From: Escherichia coli O127:H6 str. E2348/69
GTDB lineage: Bacteria; Pseudomonadota; Gammaproteobacteria; Enterobacterales; Enterobacteriaceae
Reading direction: 5' to 3' (one strand)
Length of the DNA stretch: 64,000 nucleotides
NCBI RefSeq assembly: GCF_000026545.1
Contig: NC_011601.1
The notes below the pieces were generated by a model. The model worked only from the letters and a program-made list of their open reading frames with translations, made no database searches and had not been told where the DNA came from. Shown here piece after piece: positions 1 through 9,999 of the stretch; position 1 is the stretch's first letter; each line of letters starts with the position of its first letter. The position numbers were made by a program, and so were the translations under genes.

Positions 1-112
1 TTCCGGAAAGCTTTCAGCTTTGAGCCAGTTATTAAAACCCCTTTTGATTTGTTAAAACACCTTGCGGTCTGGCAACTGCAAGTGTCAAACAAGAAATCAA
101 AAGGGGGTCCCA

Positions 113-571
113 ATGGGGAACGAAAAGAGCTTAGCGCACACCCGATGGAACTGTAAATATCACATAGTATTTGCGCCAAAATACCGAAGACAGGTGTTCT
201 ACAGAGAGAAGCGTAGAGCAATAGGCTGTATTTTGAGAAAGCTGTGTGAGTGGAAAAGTGTACGGATTCTGGAAGCTGAATGCTGTGCAGATCATATCCA
301 TATGCTTGTGGAGATCCCGCCCAAAATGAGCGTATCCGGCTTTATGGGATATCTGAAAGGGAAAAGCAGTCTGATGCTTTACGAGCAGTTTGGTGATTTG
401 AAATTCAAGTACAGGAACAGGGAGTTCTGGTGCAGAGGGTATTACGTCGATACGGTGGGTAAGAACACGGCGAAGATACAGGATTACATAAAGCACCAGC
501 TTGAAGAGGATAAAATGGGAGAGCAGTTATCGATTCCCTATCCGGGCAGCCCGTTTACGGGCCGTAAGTAA
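113..571 (+). CDS. tnpA: IS200 transposase TnpA (Y1 HuH transposase), 152 aa
   Basis: Translation MGNEKSLAHTRWNCKYHIVFAPKYRR...HIHMLVEIPPK... closely matches Salmonella/E. coli IS200 TnpA as I recall it. The ATG at 113 gives the expected length. Confidence 0.9.
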   Translation: MGNEKSLAHTRWNCKYHIVFAPKYRRQVFYREKRRAIGCILRKLCEWKSVRILEAECCADHIHMLVEIPPKMSVSGFMGYLKGKSSLMLYEQFGDLKFKYRNREFWCRGYYVDTVGKNTAKIQDYIKHQLEEDKMGEQLSIPYPGSPFTGRK

Positions 572-652
572 CGAAGTTGGATGCAAATGTCAGATCGTGT
601 GCGCCTGTTAGGGCGCGGCTGGTAAGAGAGCCTTATAGGCGCATTTGAAAAA

Positions 653-671
653 CCTCCGGCTATGCCGGAGG
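653..671 (+). terminator. Perfect stem-loop (cctccggc-tat-gccggagg) downstream of tnpA, followed by an AT-rich tract; likely the IS200 3' structural hairpin
   Basis: 8-bp perfect inverted repeat with 3-nt loop read directly from the sequence. Confidence 0.45.
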
Positions 672-722
672 ATATTTATTGAATAATACTATTTCGACTG
701 AAATAACAGGTAAGGATACAAA

Positions 723-1151
723 ATGGGTTCATGGGGAATGGAGGCTCTCGAAAGCGACGAAGGGCTGGATTTGATTAATTGGGTAGAGGAACAACTGCAA
801 GATGATTCGACCTTTGATGCCGAGTCAATTGTTCAACGCTTAAGCCAGCATGAAGATTTGTTCGGATTTCAGGGAGATGAAGAATTTCTCTACGATAATA
901 ATGTTATCGGTCTCGTTGAACTTATCATTCAAAAAGCAGCCGGGAAAAAAATCACATCGAGTAAACAAATTGATCAACTCGACGGTTATCAGCTCACGTC
1001 GACTTTCAGCAAAAAACTCCAGGGCCGTTTACAAACAATCGACGACACACATGAGTGGATAATGCTTTTCGAGGGGCGAGCACGCGAAAAAGCAAAAGCA
1101 TATCTGATTGAGCTTACTGATAAATTAAGAGTAGTAAAGACAACAGCCTGA
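723..1151 (+). CDS. Small acidic hypothetical protein, 142 aa; N-terminus MGSWG resembles DUF4259-type proteins
   Basis: ORF with an AAGGA ribosome-binding site about 8 nt upstream and no homologue I can name with certainty. Family assignment is from memory of the MGxWG N-terminal signature. Confidence 0.55.
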   Translation: MGSWGMEALESDEGLDLINWVEEQLQDDSTFDAESIVQRLSQHEDLFGFQGDEEFLYDNNVIGLVELIIQKAAGKKITSSKQIDQLDGYQLTSTFSKKLQGRLQTIDDTHEWIMLFEGRAREKAKAYLIELTDKLRVVKTTA

Positions 1152-1242
1152 ATGACAAACAAGGGCGCGCAAAATTAAGAATCTGCGCCCTTTCAAAGCC
1201 CGACAGGCGTAGCGCATCAGGCGATTTAGCGTCTGCCATCAG

Positions 1243-1662
1243 TCAAAGAAACCATTCCGGCTTAACGCCAAATCGGGCTGAAAGTGCCTTAATGTGGGAT
1301 ATCGTCAGGGATCGTTGTCCAGATAAAATCTGACTGACCAGGGATTTAGAGCCGATTTCGTTCTTCAAATCCGCATAGGTCAGATTATGTTGATCAATCA
1401 GCGTACGAAGTAACGCCACGCCAACCGACATTGCTGCAACGGCTTTGTCGAACTCTGCAAACTTTTCGTTATTGTTTTCATATTCTGCAATGCGGCTCGC
1501 CAGAAAGTCGATAAGTGGATTGGTGTCATCTTCTTCAATCAAATATTCGACCAGTTCCAGTGCTTCACGATAATCATCTTCTGAGTCACTGCCTCCCAGA
1601 AAGGGGACTGCATTGACCAGTTCTCTTGTTGCTTTAACAGCGCGTGCAGCATTAGCAGTCAT
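1243..1662 (-). CDS. higA: HigA-family antitoxin (XRE-type HTH at C-terminus), 139 aa
   Basis: C-terminal GSKSLVSQILSGQRSLTISHIKALSARFGV matches the HigA/YgjM HTH. It overlaps the upstream toxin gene by 4 bp, the typical toxin-first higBA arrangement. Confidence 0.8.
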   Translation of the reverse strand: MTANAARAVKATRELVNAVPFLGGSDSEDDYREALELVEYLIEEDDTNPLIDFLASRIAEYENNNEKFAEFDKAVAAMSVGVALLRTLIDQHNLTYADLKNEIGSKSLVSQILSGQRSLTISHIKALSARFGVKPEWFL

Positions 1663-1970
1663 TCTTTGTTCTCTCTGTAGTAACGTGTCAGTTTGTCATA
1701 CTCTGCGTGATTCGTGATGTGCTTCACAAAGAACCGCTTATTAACAAAGTTTATGTAGGCAATAACCCTAAGATTGTTCCCGCCGACATCCAGAACGTAC
1801 CATTTGTTGCGATATTTAAAATTGTCGAGGTTGGGAAAAGCCGTTCGCATTTCTTCTGGCGTAGAAAAATCCGTTTCCTTAATAACCCGATACAATGAGT
1901 GTAGAGCCAGAGCGTCGTTAGGATATTTGCGCGCACACTCTTCAAATGGCGCTTTCGAAATGATGTGCAT
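1659..1970 (-). CDS. higB: HigB-family mRNA interferase toxin (RelE/ParE superfamily), 103 aa
   Basis: MHIISKAPFEECARKYP...FPNLDNFKYRNKWYVLDVGGNNLRVIAY... is similar to E. coli HigB (YgjN). The start was moved to the internal ATG, which has an AAGGAAG ribosome-binding site; the six-frame ORF is N-terminally extended. Confidence 0.8.
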   Translation of the reverse strand: MHIISKAPFEECARKYPNDALALHSLYRVIKETDFSTPEEMRTAFPNLDNFKYRNKWYVLDVGGNNLRVIAYINFVNKRFFVKHITNHAEYDKLTRYYRENKE

Positions 1971-2051
1971 TTTAACTTCCTTATTAGCGCCTGAATGACT
2001 AAACCTGGACAACCATTCCTTGGGATTTATTTTTCTATAGTAGTTGATCAC

Positions 2052-2080
2052 ACGGGTGTTCACAATATGTAAACACCCGT
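2052..2080. promoter_or_regulatory. Perfect 9-bp inverted repeat (acgggtgtt-N11-aacacccgt) upstream of higB; candidate HigA operator
   Basis: Palindrome read directly from the sequence, about 80 bp upstream of the higB start in the higBA promoter region. Confidence 0.35.
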
Positions 2081-2136
2081 CTACACGTCACAATAGCACG
2101 TCCAAATTCCAAAACGTGAACATGTTTGTCTACGAA

Positions 2137-2607
2137 CTACTCTTCTTCCGCCGCTAACTGCGCGAAGCCGCCATTTCCTTCCCAGCCTTCCAGCCGCTGA
2201 TACACCGTTTCCACCGCATCTTTAATCTGCTGAGTCATCGGGTAGTAAAAGCCGACGATATCCGGCTGGATGCCAAGGAAAATCACTTCGCCAATATCTT
2301 CTTTCAACTGGTCGATAAGATAGTTCAGCGGCATGTTATGGGTAGTCATCATAAACATCTCGGCGATGTCAGCCGGGTCGATGATGCGGATCTCGCTAGG
2401 GTTTAGCCCCATATCCGTGGCGTCGACAATAAGCAGCCGTGTCGGGCGCAGTTCGCGGATAGCGACAATGTCGTTTTCCGGTGCGCTACCGCCGTCAATC
2501 ACTACCCAGTTACCTTTCGGCGCGGCAGCGCACTTTTCCGCCAGTAGCGGGCCTGCGCCATCATCGCCCATCATGCTATTGCCAACACAGAGTAAAACGT
2601 CAGTCAC
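2137..2607 (-). CDS. hycI: Hydrogenase 3 maturation endopeptidase HycI
   Basis: 156-aa [28 protein letters not shown]... matches HycI; last gene of the hyc operon. Confidence 0.95.
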   Translation of the reverse strand: MTDVLLCVGNSMMGDDGAGPLLAEKCAAAPKGNWVVIDGGSAPENDIVAIRELRPTRLLIVDATDMGLNPSEIRIIDPADIAEMFMMTTHNMPLNYLIDQLKEDIGEVIFLGIQPDIVGFYYPMTQQIKDAVETVYQRLEGWEGNGGFAQLAAEEE

Positions 2608-3010
2608 GCAGTCTCCTCACCATCAAATAGATGGCGTTTTCCTGATGAATATCATGCAGCATACTTAACAGCATTGTACTCCATTCCTTCTGCTGCGAAG
2701 TTTGCGCTGCCCGGGCTTTATCGAATGCGTTGGCCAGCATCGGCACATGGTTAATGTCGATGACGATCTCACCATATTTCGGCACGCCTTCCATTTTGCG
2801 GCGGGCTTCGCTGCCCGCCTCCAGAGTGGCAATCCATGCCAGATATTCATCCCACGGGCAGGTAAGCGCCGCTTCCAGGCAATCGATAACCCCAAGGTGG
2901 TGACCAATCGCCAGACTGTAATAGACCACCTGCTGCGCCTCGGCGGGCGTGGCATCGTTCTCATCAATAAATTTACGGCTCAGTTGACTGAACACCACCT
3001 TTTCACTCAT
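2600..3010 (-). CDS. hycH: Formate hydrogenlyase maturation protein HycH
   Basis: 136-aa ORF in hyc operon order, overlapping hycI by 8 nt. Confidence 0.92.
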
Positions 3011-4325: not shown

Positions 4326-6035
4326 TTATTTCAGCGGCGAGTTTTTACGCTCAATGCTGTAACGCTCGAGTTCTTTGTACGGCACCACTTTGCTCTTCTT
4401 CTTACGCACATCGACCACGGTCATGCGGTCGGTACAGGAGTAGCAAGGGTCCAGGCTACCGATAATCAACGGCGCATCGGAAACGGTGTTGCCGCGCAGC
4501 ATGTAGCGCAGGGTCGGCCAGTTCGCGTAGGTCGCCGCACGGCAGCGCCAGCGGTACAGCTTCTGGTTGTCGCCGGTCATGCTCCAGTGGATATCATCGC
4601 CGCGCGGCGCTTCGGCAAAGCCCAGCGCAAAGCGGTGCGGAATGTAGGTAAAGCCTTCCACCATCAGCGGGCCGCCCGGCAGGTTATCCAGACCGTAATC
4701 GATCATATTCAGCGCGGTATAGACTTCGTTGATACGCACTTTCAGACGGGAAATAACGTCGCAGCCCTGCTCGCTGTGGACTTCCATTGGCAGCAGGCCA
4801 TAACCAACAAACGGGTGATCGGCACGGGTATCACGGGCGTGACCGCTGGCACGAACCATCGGGCCAACGTTACTGAAGTCGCGAGCGATTTCCGGGTCCA
4901 GACGACCAATGCCGACGGTGCGTTGTTCCATGTTCGGTGTGCTCAGCAGCACATCCACCAGCTCCTGCACTTCACGACGCATCTGTTGTGCCAGCTGGCG
5001 GGTCTGGATCATGTCGTCTTTCAGCAGATCGCGACGAATCCCACCGATCAGGTTCAGGCCGTAGGTTTTACGCGCACCGGTAAGGATCTCTGCCATTTTC
5101 ATGGAGGTTTCACGCACGCGGAAGAACTGCATAAAGCCGGAGTCGAAGCCGGTAAAGTGACAGGCCAGGCCGAGGTTGAGCAGATGCGAGTGCAGGCGTT
5201 CTACCTCCAGCAGAATGGCGCGGATCATCTGCGCGCGTTCTGGCACCTGAATACCCATCGCGTTTTCCACCGAAGTGGTATAGGCGGTGCTGTGAGCAAA
5301 GCCGCAGATCCCGCACACACGGTCAGAGAGGAAGGTCACTTCGTTGTAACCCATACGGGTTTCCGCCAGTTTTTCCATGCCGCGATGGACGTAGAACAGG
5401 CGGTAGTCGGCGTCGATAATGTTTTCACCATCGACGAACAGACGGAAGTGACCCGGTTCGTCAGAAGTGACGTGCAGTGGACCAATCGGCACGACGTTGT
5501 TTTTCTTGTCGCCCAGTTCGTTGATGAACTCGTAGGTTTCAGCATCGGTAGTCGGTGCCGGACGCTGACGATAATCCATGCTGTCTTTACGCAGAGGATA
5601 AAGTTCATCCGGCCAGTCATCCGGCAGCACCAGACGACGTTCATCCGGCAGACCAACCGGAATCAAACCGTACATATCGCGCACTTCACGCTCGCCCCAC
5701 ACCGCCGCCGGAACGCGCGGCGTCACGGAAGGATACTCCGGTTTGTTGGCGTCAACTTCGACGCGAACCGTTACCCAACACTTGGTGCCCTTCTCCATCG
5801 ACAGCACGTAATAAACGGCGTAATGACCATTCAGTTTGCGTTCGTCGTTACCAAACAGCACCGACAGCCAACCCCCTTGTTTGTAGTAGAGAAACTCCAC
5901 CACTTCCGGCAGGTAGTTCACCTTCACGGTGACGGTTAGCTGATCTTTGGTCTGCCAGGCGTGGTCCAGCACGACGCCAGGAAATGCCTCATTCAGCGCG
6001 GCGAGATAATGTTGACCTAATTTTTCTTCAGACAT
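4326..6035 (-). CDS. hycE: Hydrogenase 3 large subunit HycE (569 aa)
   Basis: Translation MSEEKLGQHYLAAL... with NiFe-hydrogenase large-subunit motifs; start set at the conserved MSEEK. Confidence 0.95.
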   Translation of the reverse strand: MSEEKLGQHYLAALNEAFPGVVLDHAWQTKDQLTVTVKVNYLPEVVEFLYYKQGGWLSVLFGNDERKLNGHYAVYYVLSMEKGTKCWVTVRVEVDANKPEYPSVTPRVPAAVWGEREVRDMYGLIPVGLPDERRLVLPDDWPDELYPLRKDSMDYRQRPAPTTDAETYEFINELGDKKNNVVPIGPLHVTSDEPGHFRLFVDGENIIDADYRLFYVHRGMEKLAETRMGYNEVTFLSDRVCGICGFAHSTAYTTSVENAMGIQVPERAQMIRAILLEVERLHSHLLNLGLACHFTGFDSGFMQFFRVRETSMKMAEILTGARKTYGLNLIGGIRRDLLKDDMIQTRQLAQQMRREVQELVDVLLSTPNMEQRTVGIGRLDPEIARDFSNVGPMVRASGHARDTRADHPFVGYGLLPMEVHSEQGCDVISRLKVRINEVYTALNMIDYGLDNLPGGPLMVEGFTYIPHRFALGFAEAPRGDDIHWSMTGDNQKLYRWRCRAATYANWPTLRYMLRGNTVSDAPLIIGSLDPCYSCTDRMTVVDVRKKKSKVVPYKELERYSIERKNSPLK

Positions 6036-6978: not shown

Positions 6979-8805
6979 TCAGGCTCCTCGTGAAACAATA
7001 ATCACCACCAGCACCGCCAGTTCAACCAGCGCCATCCGGCAGAACAGCAACGCACTCCCCTCGCACTGCCAGCCCGGCACCAGCGACACCGGATTCAACC
7101 ATTTGCGTAGTTTCAGCACCGGCGCAAACGCCTGTTTCACCGGCATGGCAAAACCGTGAGCGGTAATCACCATTGATTTTTCATGATCGTAGCCGCACAC
7201 CCAGGCCGCGCCGCGGGAACGCGACGGCAAACGATCGCCTTTGCAAATCGCCATAATGATGAATGGCAGCAGCGGGCAGGCAATCAGCAGCAACGTGATC
7301 ATCGGTTGAGAAACGGTGGTGTTAGCAGGCTCCAGCGGCAGAGGTACAGCAGCAGAGAGCATCGGCAGTAGCCACGGCGCAGCAACACCGCCAATTACGC
7401 AGCAAATCGCCAGTGCCACTACGCTTACGCTCATCAGGAGCGGCGCACAGGTGGCGTTTTCGGTCTCTTTGGTACGCGGCGCGCCGAGGAAAGTAACGCC
7501 ATAAACTTTCGCCATACACATCACCGCCAGCGCACCGGTAATTGCCAGCCCCACGGCGAGCAGCGGCCCGAGAAGACGGGCAACAAACGCGCCACTATTG
7601 CTCAGTTTGAAGAAGGATTGATAGATAACCCATTCCCCGGCAAAACCGTTCAGCGGCGGCAGCGCAGCCATTGCCATCAGCCCGACTAACATGGCGATGG
7701 AGATAACCGGCATTTTCTTGCCAATACCACCGAGTTTTTCGATATCGCGATGACCGGTACGGAACCAGACGCTCCCCGCACCAAGGAACAGTACGCTCTT
7801 GAACAGGCTATGGTTAAGCAGATGGTACAGACCACCAACCAGACCAAGGGCAATCAGCGCCGGTTGTTCGAGCGCGATACCCGTTACGCCAGCGCCCAGC
7901 CCCAGCAGGATAATGCCGATATTCTCCAGGGTGTGGTAAGCCAGCAGACGTTGGATATTATGTTCCATCAACGCATACAGACCGCCGACGAATGCGGTGA
8001 TCATACCGAGCACCAGCAGCGCGATCCCCCACCACAGCGGTGCATTACCGCCCAGTAGTGACAGAGTTAAAATGCCCAGCAGGCCAATTTTCATGACTAC
8101 CGTGGAAAACAGCGCGGCAGCTGGCGCAGAGGCGTTGGCATGTGCCTGTGGCACCCAGCCGTGCAGCGGAATAATCCCGGCCAGCAGGCCAAAGCCAATC
8201 ACACCGAGCAGCCAGATATCGGAACCGAGCGGCAGCTGTTGCATACGCATATCCAGCAGGCGCAGATCCAGCGTGCCGTAACGCTGCCACAGCAGCCAGC
8301 AGGCAATCGCCAGCAGCAGAGTGCCAAGACGCCCCAGCGCAAACCACAGTTTGCCCTCTTTGCTGTTGCTGGTGAGGAACACCGCACACAGGGCCATGAT
8401 TTCGGCCATTACCACGAACATGCCGAGGTTGCTGGCGATGACGGCACAGACGGCGGCAGCCATCAACATATTGATCTGCAAGCCGTTGCATTTCACCTGC
8501 GCGTGGCGATGCCAGTCAATGTTGTAGAGGCTGACAAACAGACCGCATAGGCCGAGTGTAATCAGCCAAATCGCATTAAGCGGAGAGATTTGCACATCGT
8601 AGCTTACCAGCGACAGCGCACCGCTCACGCCAACCGCGCCAGTCAGCACAGTGAAGCCCGCGGCTGCCGTATACAGGCTACCCACCGCGCCGCCAATTCC
8701 GGCTATCCAGCCACTTAGCGCTTTTTGAAAAGAAAAGAGAAATGCCAGAACAGCGGCGGCGACAAACCACGCCACGCCGCTATTGATCAGGGAAATTGCG
8801 CTCAT
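6979..8805 (-). CDS. hycC: Formate hydrogenlyase membrane subunit HycC
   Basis: 608-aa NuoL/M-like antiporter-type membrane protein. Confidence 0.95.
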   Translation of the reverse strand: MSAISLINSGVAWFVAAAVLAFLFSFQKALSGWIAGIGGAVGSLYTAAAGFTVLTGAVGVSGALSLVSYDVQISPLNAIWLITLGLCGLFVSLYNIDWHRHAQVKCNGLQINMLMAAAVCAVIASNLGMFVVMAEIMALCAVFLTSNSKEGKLWFALGRLGTLLLAIACWLLWQRYGTLDLRLLDMRMQQLPLGSDIWLLGVIGFGLLAGIIPLHGWVPQAHANASAPAAALFSTVVMKIGLLGILTLSLLGGNAPLWWGIALLVLGMITAFVGGLYALMEHNIQRLLAYHTLENIGIILLGLGAGVTGIALEQPALIALGLVGGLYHLLNHSLFKSVLFLGAGSVWFRTGHRDIEKLGGIGKKMPVISIAMLVGLMAMAALPPLNGFAGEWVIYQSFFKLSNSGAFVARLLGPLLAVGLAITGALAVMCMAKVYGVTFLGAPRTKETENATCAPLLMSVSVVALAICCVIGGVAAPWLLPMLSAAVPLPLEPANTTVSQPMITLLLIACPLLPFIIMAICKGDRLPSRSRGAAWVCGYDHEKSMVITAHGFAMPVKQAFAPVLKLRKWLNPVSLVPGWQCEGSALLFCRMALVELAVLVVIIVSRGA

Positions 8806-9413
8806 TTAGCCTCTCCACTTTGAGCCTGCTGAAACAAGGTGAGATCGCCAAAGTCCGTGTTAAAAGTCAGCTCACGCTTACGTTTGCTGACGCGGGCGAT
8901 ATCGGTGTTATCCACCAGATGCAGGGCTTTAGTCGGGCACATCCGCACGCAGGCCGGACCTTGTTCATCAAAGCTACAAAGGTCACATTTGACGGCGATC
9001 GCGCGAATACCTGGCACCCAGTCAAGCAATGTGCTGACACGCGCCGGAGCAGGCGGTGCCGGTGGCGCTTTCGGGGTATTGGCGTTTGCCGGAATATCCA
9101 GCGGACGGCTGCCGGAAAATTCAATTGCGCCAAACGGGCAGGCGATACCACACAGTTTGCAGCTTACGCACAGACTTTCATTCAACTGCACAGCACCATC
9201 AACACGAGTGATGGCGTTAACCGGGCAGACCACCGCGCAGGGTGCATCTTCACAGTGATGACAGAGCTGCGGCGCAGATTCTTTTTCATTTAGCATCACT
9301 CGCAGGCGCGGCATTGATTGCAGGCCGTGCTGGCGATGCGTCTCTGAACAGGCAGCCTCACAAGTGTGGCAGCCGATACAGAGCGTGGAGTCAGCAATTA
9401 CAAAACGATTCAC
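8802..9413 (-). CDS. hycB: Formate hydrogenlyase Fe-S subunit HycB
   Basis: 203-aa ORF with four ferredoxin-type Cys clusters. Confidence 0.95.
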   Translation of the reverse strand: MNRFVIADSTLCIGCHTCEAACSETHRQHGLQSMPRLRVMLNEKESAPQLCHHCEDAPCAVVCPVNAITRVDGAVQLNESLCVSCKLCGIACPFGAIEFSGSRPLDIPANANTPKAPPAPPAPARVSTLLDWVPGIRAIAVKCDLCSFDEQGPACVRMCPTKALHLVDNTDIARVSKRKRELTFNTDFGDLTLFQQAQSGEAK

Positions 9414-9537
9414 CAGGCATTCCTCAGGTGATTGTCATTTTTGACGAAAACATGCCGATGAAATGTCATTTTCGACACTCATCGACACGCCCATCCCCAA
9501 ACAGGCGTAACGCCTGCAAAACGGGCAAAGCCTCAGC

Positions 9538-9999
9538 TCATGCTACCGGGCTTTGTCCCTTTACCAGTTGGCTTAAATTCACCGGCACATTGTTTTCAAT
9601 GGCGGTATATAAGCTGTCGTAAACGCCAGCGATTTTTTCGAGATAGTGTTCCAGAACTTGTTCGCGATCGCGGATGTTGACCTTGCCATCAATCATGCCG
9701 TCAATGCTCAACTGCGCCTGCGCAATCCGCTGTTTGTCTTCGCCATCTTTTGTTTCGACGTAATACTCGATGGTGTGGCTGTTAAAGCCATCCGCCAGGG
9801 TGACGTAAATGCGAAAATGTTCAAAAAGGACGAAACAGAGTTCTTTGTCCGGCGCGCAGCTCATGGCGTGATGCAGGCGCGCTTTCGATAACGTGATCCC
9901 CTGAACCAGCGAATTGCAGTAGATGTGCCACTGGTCCTGTAGGCGACGATGCCGCTGTGCGATGTAATCGGCTTTCTCGCTTATTTCCCAAATAGTCAT
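9538..9999 (-). CDS. hycA: Formate hydrogenlyase regulatory protein HycA
   Basis: 153-aa ORF; first gene of the hyc operon, divergent from hypA. Confidence 0.92.
   Translation of the reverse strand: MTIWEISEKADYIAQRHRRLQDQWHIYCNSLVQGITLSKARLHHAMSCAPDKELCFVLFEHFRIYVTLADGFNSHTIEYYVETKDGEDKQRIAQAQLSIDGMIDGKVNIRDREQVLEHYLEKIAGVYDSLYTAIENNVPVNLSQLVKGQSPVA

Follow-up and report, generated by a model that had tools for sequence, protein, structure and literature searches.

A probable SehAB-like toxin-antitoxin operon in the variable hydN-hycI spacer of Escherichia coli E2348/69

Introduction

Do the mobile element, the small orphan gene and the toxin-antitoxin (TA) genes that lie together beside hycI in Escherichia coli O127:H6 str. 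E2348/69 form a single accessory unit, or have they come to share one intergenic site by separate routes? The question is raised by positions 1-2136 of a 64,000-nucleotide (nt) stretch of contig NC_011601.1, the whole of which is referred to here as the window. A reading made from the letters alone (the sequence-only reading) had recognized in these positions an IS200-like insertion sequence (IS), an acidic open reading frame of 142 amino acids (aa; ORF142) and an intact-looking higB-higA pair, and had taken them together for a small defense or addiction islet. The IS200 tnpA, ORF142, higA and higB genes are all present where that reading had placed them, and the RefSeq annotation agrees with these calls and with that of hycI. 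The hycI gene itself (2137-2607, minus strand; TIGR00142, 4.2e-67) is the core-genome flank and is annotated in each of the strains compared. The DNA is also, as had been supposed, accessory in character, with a GC (guanine plus cytosine) content of 41-47% over positions 1-2136 as compared with ~55% for the hyc operon. The unity of these genes is another matter: positions 1-2136 are probably best described as the hydN-hycI spacer, a variable interval of E. coli that was here built by separate events and carries an intact type II TA operon that resembles SehAB of Salmonella enterica Typhimurium.

A spacer built by separate events

Two comparisons bear on the question. The hydN-hycI interval was taken from eight strains and compared pairwise by BLAST, and the distribution of its parts was surveyed in 5426 complete E. 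coli genomes. Window positions 1-2700 match three assemblies at 100% identity, all of them E2348/69, and no other assembly covers at least 80% of this length. Some part of positions 690-2110 occurs in 2508 of the 5426 genomes, always once and always on the chromosome, and at least 80% of it, which amounts to ORF142, higA and higB together, in 163. ORF142 is carried by 725 genomes in a single chromosomal copy, full-length higB by 1091 and a mere 33-bp higB stub by 581; the IS200C copy with its nested ISEc13 is private to the three E2348/69 assemblies. The modules are found in every combination among strains, and because they vary independently among the 5426 genomes, the region is a mosaic of four independent pieces and no single islet. 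When the analysis was extended upstream of the window, as the sequence-only reading had proposed, it did run through further mobile DNA to the left end of the IS200 copy, which is interrupted by ISEc13, but neither there nor elsewhere at the locus were boundary repeats, an integrase or a tRNA seen.

The K-12 arrangement given in that reading, with asc adjoining hycI, is correct: the gene order is hydN-ascG-ascF-ascB-hycI, and K-12 has the asc genes where E2348/69 has the IS200, ORF142 and higBA genes. Comparison of the ascB-hycI junction across strains bore out the absence of higBA from K-12, but many asc-positive strains proved to hold higBA between ascB and hycI; in EC21Z, 95NR1 and EC24 the common segment corresponds to positions 1195-1984. 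As ascGFB and higBA thus stand side by side in many strains, higBA is no replacement of asc. In the B2-type strains that hold ORF142 (CFT073, A3 and AZ162) the asc operon is absent except for an 83-bp remnant at 85-88% identity, of which 57 bp come from the 3' end of ascB and 26 bp from its downstream flank, and this remnant argues that the operon was lost by deletion and that the TA pair did not push it out. Where K-12 has a 33-bp stretch that contains a repetitive extragenic palindromic (REP) element, B2-type strains carry a segment of 586 bp that is referred to here as the DUF4259 module. Pairwise BLAST located this module in CFT073, A3 and the ST131-like AZ162, and found it absent from K-12, EC21Z, 95NR1 and EC24.

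K-12 is not without traces of the region. A REP-like 48-bp segment downstream of higA (1195-1242), where K-12 region 4469-4516 aligns with CFT073 957-1004, is the sole part of positions 1-2136 present also in K-12. The interval between higB and hycI has two forms, a short one of 150 bp (E2348/69, A3, EC21Z) and one of ~940 bp (CFT073, 95NR1, EC24) whose product is a 251-aa protein carrying a signal peptide (CFT073 locus L002, 9459-10214; also loci L007, L008 and L093), and K-12 holds ~30 bp similar to the 3' end of the gene for this protein. Since K-12 shares both this remnant and positions 1195-1242, its scars appear to fit loss of the pair better than a virgin site. E2348/69 lacks the 251-aa ORF, which had no match in PADLOC or PHROG; AZ162 and GABEEC10 keep only a ~60-aa stub of it, and FORC_029 has it in full.

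The separate events may be pictured as follows. A higB-higA module (1195-1984 plus the promoter, to ~2080) was acquired horizontally and lies directly downstream of hycI. In the B2 lineage, deletion of ascGFB left 83 bp behind, and the 586-bp AT-rich segment with its solitary ORF142, whose nearest relatives are in Firmicutes, lies at the REP element on the downstream side of ascB. IS200C entered 48 bp upstream of ORF142 in the E2348/69 lineage alone, and a later insertion of ISEc13 into its left-end hairpin separated tnpA and the STnc490 RNA from the 5' end of their element. Within a single intergenic site the locus brings together several steps of gain and loss: asc was deleted, a gene whose relatives are in Firmicutes arrived, the toxin was lost time and again while its antitoxin stayed, and one IS landed in another. 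Such a history is nothing unexpected for E. coli accessory DNA.

The higB-higA operon

The pair is encoded on the minus strand in toxin-first order, higB (1659-1970) lying upstream of higA (1243-1662) with a 4-nt overlap, ATGA. HigB is a basic toxin of the HigB_toxin family (PF09907, 4.8e-23) with 103 aa and an isoelectric point (pI) of 9.2, and 100 of its 103 residues align with K-12 HigB in PDB entry 5IFG_A (E 7.4e-22). HigA, by comparison, is acidic (139 aa, pI 4.7); it aligns over residues 9-138 with K-12 HigA in 5IFG_B (E 3.5e-34), carries Pfam HTH_3 at residues 85-138 (7.9e-9) and is predicted to act as antitoxin and autorepressor. By these alignments HigA is laid out as an N-terminal toxin-binding and dimerization domain followed by a C-terminal Xre-type helix-turn-helix (HTH) domain. 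At 39% identity for HigB and 46% for HigA, the hycI-side proteins are assigned as distant paralogues of the K-12 pair; NCBIfam has no family for either.

The description of higB as intact-looking stands: the gene is full length at 103 aa, and its product has the expected residue at 26 of 26 family-invariant positions. Its start is the ATG at 1970, which lies 5 nt behind a Shine-Dalgarno sequence, AAGGAAG (1976-1982, minus strand), kept in both of the promoter variants found in E. coli. A longer higB ORF with a GTG start (to 2063) was considered and set aside, as the extension is not conserved between the promoter variants and RefSeq has the 103-aa protein. In CFT073-type alleles (locus L002, ~9297-9320; also L007 and L008), an 8-nt insertion, ACTTAAAA, stands between the Shine-Dalgarno sequence and the higB ATG and brings their spacing to ~13 nt. 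The HigB protein WP_000547555.1 is identical in E2348/69, CFT073 and the asc-positive EC21Z, whose DNA differences are synonymous only. Differences among higA alleles in E. coli are likewise almost all synonymous, although the synonymous and non-synonymous counts are small and support no more than higA being constrained.

The pair travels well beyond E. coli. A profile search of genome contigs with the HigB alignment supplied an other-species set made up of the best 80 loci, in 79 of which a HigA homologue lies downstream of higB on the same strand. In none of these 80 does hycI, ORF142 or the 251-aa protein occur near higB, and no Salmonella or Escherichia locus is among them. Homologues of 60-80% identity are moreover present on more than 500 plasmids, mostly of Klebsiella. 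Because the pair is kept in the other-species loci and has these plasmid homologues, higBA is a self-contained, mobile two-gene module. Literature searches pairing higB with hycI and ascB with hycI found nothing relevant; as far as they showed, the hycI-side pair has not previously been studied, its family being already known.

Toxicity and its neutralization are inferred here from family membership. Translation of higB and higA would be coupled through the ATGA overlap, the N-terminal domain of HigA would sequester and so neutralize HigB, and upon depletion of HigA the free toxin would halt growth by cutting translation capacity.

Predicted promoter and operator

A candidate higBA promoter (2037-2065, minus strand) consists of a -35 box, TTGTGA (2060-2065), a 17-nt spacer and a -10 box, TACTAT (2037-2042). 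Its geometry is conserved, the CFT073-type variant reading TTGTGA-17 nt-TATAGT and loci of other genera TTGTAA-17 nt-TATAGT-like. Overlapping the predicted -35 box is a 17-bp palindrome, GTTTACA-TAT-TGTGAAC on the minus strand (2058-2074), which is the predicted HigA operator, O1, and which in the E2348/69 allele is extended to a 29-bp inverted repeat (2052-2080). The pattern GTTYACANNNTGTRAAC occurs once in the 64-kb window, at O1 itself, as against 0.02 expected occurrences, and the O1 core is the one stretch common to both upstream variants of E. coli, which cannot otherwise be aligned.

The palindrome is conserved outside E. coli as well. Among the closest higB loci of other Enterobacterales genera, most have GTTYACAWNWTGTAAAC twice, ~73 and ~37 nt before the ATG, and the two copies flank the TATAGT box (Leclercia, Mangrovibacter, Yokenella, Kluyvera, Pluralibacter, Citrobacter, Photorhabdus and Xenorhabdus). 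The SehB-type locus of Citrobacter werkmanii has GTTTTCA-N3-TGAAAAC twice in the same layout, and SehB is reported to bind two palindromes spanning the -35 and -10 boxes (PMC7160566). From this conservation we infer how the operon would be controlled: transcription would start at the sigma-70 promoter, and HigA dimers would bind O1 through the C-terminal HTH and repress it.

The K-12-type locus in E2348/69

The sequence-only reading had counted the hycI-side pair as a second higBA copy besides the ygjNM-type locus. That count does not hold. At the fadH-rlmG locus of E2348/69 (L009, 2589-3276), higA is intact and its product 98% identical to the K-12 protein, but higB has been reduced to a 78-bp fragment by a deletion that also took the promoter and the operator, CCGTTGCCA-ATC-TGGCAACGG. 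The same truncation of K-12-type higB was reported for CFT073 and NRG857c (PMC7232551), and the K-12-type locus is marked 'TRUNC' in the survey of Norton and Mulvey (PMC3464220). Given this stub, the pair beside hycI is the sole complete PF09907-type pair of E2348/69, and there is no second copy.

The two systems are related without being alike in detail. The hycI-side pair and K-12 HigBA (YgjN/YgjM, PDB 5IFG) have in common PF09907 and HTH_3, gene order, an overlapping stop and start, the C-terminal HTH and a palindromic operator with a 3-nt center over the promoter. They differ by the modest identities given above, by location (fadH-rlmG as opposed to ascB/hydN-hycI) and by operator, that of K-12 being unrelated in sequence to O1. 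On account of this last difference, cross-regulation of the hycI-side operon by the orphan K-12-type HigA appears unlikely.

These findings have a bearing on inventories of TA systems. Those of E. coli take K-12 as their basis, with 'HigBA' usually denoting the fadH-rlmG locus, whose toxin is truncated in at least E2348/69, CFT073 and NRG857c. The published CFT073 higBA knock-out (PMC3464220) hit this K-12-type locus, as its primers encode K-12-type HigB residues. E2348/69 and CFT073 hold the intact paralogous pair by hycI, which that knock-out left untouched.

Possible mode of action of HigB and competing readings

The closest characterized relative is SehAB of S. enterica Typhimurium (STM4031/STM4030.S). 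SehA was reported to lack endonuclease activity and instead to inhibit RNase III by way of the double-stranded RNA-binding domain of that enzyme (PMC12817084). In vitro the purified protein caused no change in total-RNA profiles, its toxicity was rnc-dependent, and residues Y53, D61, H88, Y91, K93, T95, Y97 and Y98 were required for it (PMC12817084). In the comparisons that follow, SehA is represented not by the Salmonella protein itself but by its C. werkmanii orthologue (locus L089). This orthologue and its antitoxin were picked by matching the primer-derived peptides of PMC7160566: the 103-aa toxin matches the sehA peptides WNYIVHV, PFNEAM, HIVSHAE and AYYRGNKE*, and the protein encoded downstream matches the sehB peptides MxTHRQMD, EYRRALALVEFLVDHDDLENPLFELL and HIKALTQRFKLPADAFIE*.

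HigB is 58% identical to this SehA orthologue, without gaps, and at identical numbering it has every one of the eight toxicity residues along with R54 and K56, thus 10 of the 10 tested residues, as compared with 5 of 10, and 4 of the 8 required for toxicity, in K-12 HigB. The resemblance extends to the toxin-first operon, the 103-aa length and identical residue numbering of the toxins, their common C-terminal helix motif HAEYDKLT.YYR.NKE, the antitoxin layout with an N-terminal dimerization and toxin-binding domain and a C-terminal HTH, and the operator shape GTTTxCA-N3-TGxAAAC. Unlike SehAB, the hycI-side pair occupies another chromosomal site in another species, its antitoxin shares only 44% identity with the SehB type, and in E2348/69 it has one operator where SehAB has two. 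By these comparisons HigB groups with SehA inside PF09907. Since its identity is 58% to the SehA type and 39% to K-12 HigB, and since all of the toxicity residues are kept, SehA-like inhibition of RNase III-dependent ribosomal RNA (rRNA) maturation would rank slightly ahead of RelE-like cleavage of mRNA on the ribosome. That the hycI-side HigB in fact resembles SehA throughout its mechanism, binding RNase III, slowing rRNA maturation and cutting no mRNA, and that it thereby supplies strains such as E2348/69 and CFT073, in which it is the only intact toxin of the family, with a brake on ribosome assembly that K-12 lacks, is put forward tentatively. Were such a brake to operate, the fact that the toxin has been lost repeatedly and higA kept would reflect selection on the brake in lineages such as ST131. 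The E. coli toxin would in any case be a convenient test case for the RNase III mechanism beyond Salmonella.

Several observations tell against an intact, SehAB-like operon. The RNase III mechanism is the work of one laboratory on a protein that is 58% identical, a figure obtained through the Citrobacter stand-in, and K-12 HigB, of the same Pfam family, cleaves translated mRNA in vivo (PMC2814082). The predicted promoter hexamers agree with the consensus at 8 of 12 positions and fall under the threshold of the scanning tool. The second operator is absent, its position being degenerate in both E. coli promoter variants, and loss of this downstream operator suggests weakened autorepression or regulatory decay. 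Among higB alleles, synonymous and non-synonymous changes are about equal in number, over few comparisons. Finally, more than half of the carrier genomes are without higB yet have higA, which is a sign of decay in E. coli.

The alternative that survives best concerns the target only: HigB may be a classical ribosome-dependent mRNA interferase of the RelE/HigB type, entering the A site and cutting translated mRNA, with the mosaic and the autoregulated operon unchanged. This is quite possible, if somewhat short of probable. It draws on membership of the same Pfam family, on the full-length alignment to the K-12 HigB structure 5IFG, on the specificity of K-12 HigB in vivo for translated mRNA alone (PMC2814082) and on H88, Y91, T95 and Y53, which are common to HigB, the SehA-type toxin and K-12 HigB. 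It is countered by the greater identity to the SehA-type toxin, by D61, K93, Y97 and Y98, which serve SehA toxicity and are present in the hycI-side HigB but different in K-12 HigB, and by the unchanged RNA profiles and the need for rnc reported for SehA (PMC12817084).

A second alternative would make the pair a decaying, silent remnant, with E2348/69 higB unexpressed or barely toxic and higA persisting in an orphan role, as regulator or anti-addiction gene. Chromosomal TA pairs usually decay by a route in which the toxin goes and the antitoxin is retained. Such decay fits the contrast between the 2508 genomes with some part of the cassette, higA being present in every locus inspected, and the 1091 with full-length higB. 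It fits also the higB deletions, which with higA intact are of differing kinds in AZ162 (with ORF142), FORC_029 (with asc, IS621 and the 251-aa gene) and GABEEC10 and would have arisen several times independently, and the scars that alone are left in K-12. Absence of the second operator (O2) from both E. coli promoter variants, the 8-nt insertion before the ATG in CFT073-type alleles and purifying selection that is stronger on higA than on higB point the same way. For E2348/69, however, decay is unlikely: its higB is untruncated and keeps every one of the 26 family-invariant positions, the Shine-Dalgarno sequence lies 5 nt from the ATG, the predicted -35 and -10 boxes and O1 are intact, and strains as distant as CFT073 and EC21Z encode the identical WP_000547555.1 with only synonymous differences. 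The intact SehAB-like operon is the preferred description for this strain.

Very improbable, and as a three-part unit largely refuted, is the proposal that IS200, ORF142 and higBA form one defense or addiction islet in which ORF142 is a third partner (sensor or accessory) and the TA pair acts in abortive infection: TA systems are often found in phage defense, and HigB and the N-terminal part of HigA do match PADLOC profiles PD-Lambda-2_A (1.2e-15) and PD-Lambda-2_B (9.1e-14), but ORF142 accompanies none of the 80 other-species higBA loci, is absent from the strains EC21Z, 95NR1 and EC24 with asc and higBA, is convergent to higA with a terminator between them, has solitary homologues and has no PADLOC or PHROG match, and the IS200C insertion is private to E2348/69. 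PD-lambda-2 is a validated E. coli anti-phage system of three genes, encoding a HigB-like protein, an HTH-peptidase fusion and a P4-antitoxin-like protein (Vassallo et al. 2022; PMC9519451). The hycI-side pair is like it in that the first gene is HigB-like and the second opens with a HigA-like HTH region. Membership was rejected, as HigA covers only positions 9-115 of the 402-position PD-Lambda-2_B profile, without the peptidase domain that PD-lambda-2 fuses to the HTH, and no P4-antitoxin-like third gene is present. Nothing specific supports an abortive-infection role for the pair.

ORF142 and the DUF4259 module

The part of the DUF4259 module that lies within the window (681-1194, plus strand; GC 41%) comprises ORF142 and a bidirectional terminator; the 586-bp segment is made up of these positions plus ~70 bp beyond the IS insertion. 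ORF142 (723-1151, plus strand) encodes a small, acidic cytoplasmic protein (pI 4.5; 27 Asp plus Glu as against 15 Lys plus Arg). Between it and higA lies a hairpin (1161-1192) formed by the inverted repeat AAGGGCGC/GCGCCCTT, with a terminator-like site on the minus strand (1188-1167), and this is likely the shared terminator of the two convergent genes. ORF142 is unrelated to the higBA pair, and no evidence joins them.

The direct Pfam match of ORF142 to DUF4259 (PF14078) is weak (E 0.011) and spans the N-terminal 82 residues, but of the 16 relatives in the alignment, 11 match the family at E<=1e-3. The AlphaFold (AF2) model of ORF142 is all helical, with a mean predicted local distance difference test (pLDDT) score of 87.6, and Foldseek aligns it with models of DUF4259 proteins at template modeling (TM) scores of 0.74-0.83. 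On these grounds ORF142 is accepted as a divergent DUF4259 member. It has the N-terminal MGxWGxxALxSDxGLD, the DFLYDN motif and the all-helical fold of ~140 aa in common with the family, and differs from it in a direct score below significance and in belonging to a tiny, mostly Firmicutes subfamily. NCBIfam assigns no family to ORF142, the PDB holds no match to it by sequence, Foldseek found nothing useful there (best E 0.5), and a literature search on DUF4259 returned nothing relevant.

Relatives are few. A word-indexed search with ORF142 retrieved essentially E. coli proteins only, together with one protein of Listeria costaricensis at 64-66% identity. A HMMER scan of 1.84 billion representatives gave 25 matches, which after removal of E. 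coli fragments and spurious hits left ~15 proteins of 30-43% identity over the N-terminal 70 residues. Two of the candidates, P0132 and P0139, were dropped as spurious, being low-complexity repeat proteins. The Listeria homologue (L010, 5001-5444) stands alone, flanked by a glycoside hydrolase family 65 gene and by cdaA, and another homologue, likewise solitary, is on a metagenomic contig with a DUF576 gene, which we take to be a staphylococcal marker. Because its nearest relative outside E. coli sits in Listeria, the gene would seem to have crossed between Firmicutes and E. coli. According to Foldseek, a DUF4259-like fold also forms one domain of large proteins annotated as Knr4/Smi1-like, DUF2185, a MORN-repeat variant and DUF3592; DUF4259 could therefore be an immunity-type binding module, an idea that is only a lead.

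IS200C and the nested ISEc13

Positions 1-680 (plus strand) are the right-hand ~95% of an IS200C copy, ~nt 32-711 of the 711-bp element, for which RefSeq has an 'IS200/IS605-like element IS200C family transposase'. The IS200-like element of the sequence-only reading is thus real, but the copy runs on past the window start, and ISEc13 interrupts it there. Its tnpA (113-571, plus strand) is an intact ORF for an IS200 Y1 (HUH) transposase of 152 aa (WP_000526113.1; NCBIfam NF033573, 6.7e-43, 145.9 bits with a cut-off of 55). It is preceded by the IS200 5'-untranslated region (UTR) RNA element, Rfam STnc490 (1-103, plus strand; RF01405, 108.5 bits, E 3.4e-22, model positions 22-124), a match that loses its 5' end at the window start. 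In this 5'-UTR a stem formed by the inverted repeat 38-53/91-106 covers the tnpA ribosome-binding site. Of the subterminal hairpin pair of IS200/IS605 elements, both of which must be intact for single-strand transposition, that of the right end is present (648-676) as an inverted repeat with terminator-like sites on both strands (653-671) and looks like a bidirectional terminator; that of the left end is split.

The junctions were defined by comparison with empty sites. CFT073 and strain A3 are uninterrupted across CCTTTATT^AAATAATAC, right after a terminator-like hairpin, and comparison of the empty site of CFT073 with the filled site puts the IS200C insertion point at CCTTTATT^AATAATAC. The inserted DNA runs from window position -1589 to 680 (7411-9680 of the E2348/69 stretch fetched for this purpose, L001). 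The reconstructed IS200C is 711 bp long and has no target duplication; its final 6 bp (TTTATT) could be assigned either to the element or to the target site. ISEc13, an IS4-family element of 1550 bp with a 9-bp duplication, AGCTAGGCT, sits in the loop of the perfect hairpin at the left end of IS200C, CCCCCAGC-TAG-GCTGGGGG, and ends 14 bp ahead of window position 1. In length, 152-aa Y1 transposase, perfect left-end hairpin, STnc490 stem over the ribosome-binding site, right-end hairpin and lack of target duplication, the copy is like IS200 of Salmonella and E. coli, from which it differs by the 1550-bp ISEc13 in its left-end hairpin. Because of this interruption, IS200C is probably immobilized and no longer normally expressed.

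Other mobile DNA was noted at and near the locus. Upstream of hypF, E2348/69 has a cluster of IS fragments (L001, 173-4062) consisting of an IS1397 pseudogene, ISEc21 and IS3-family pieces; at the same hypF-side position CFT073, A3 and K-12 have norV-norW, and in CFT073 and A3 gutQ and norR come before these. In FORC_029 (L093, 1331-2311), IS621 of the IS110 family lies between ascB and an orphan higA, in the REP-containing spacer, and this short spacer has therefore been struck by different mobile elements in different strains.

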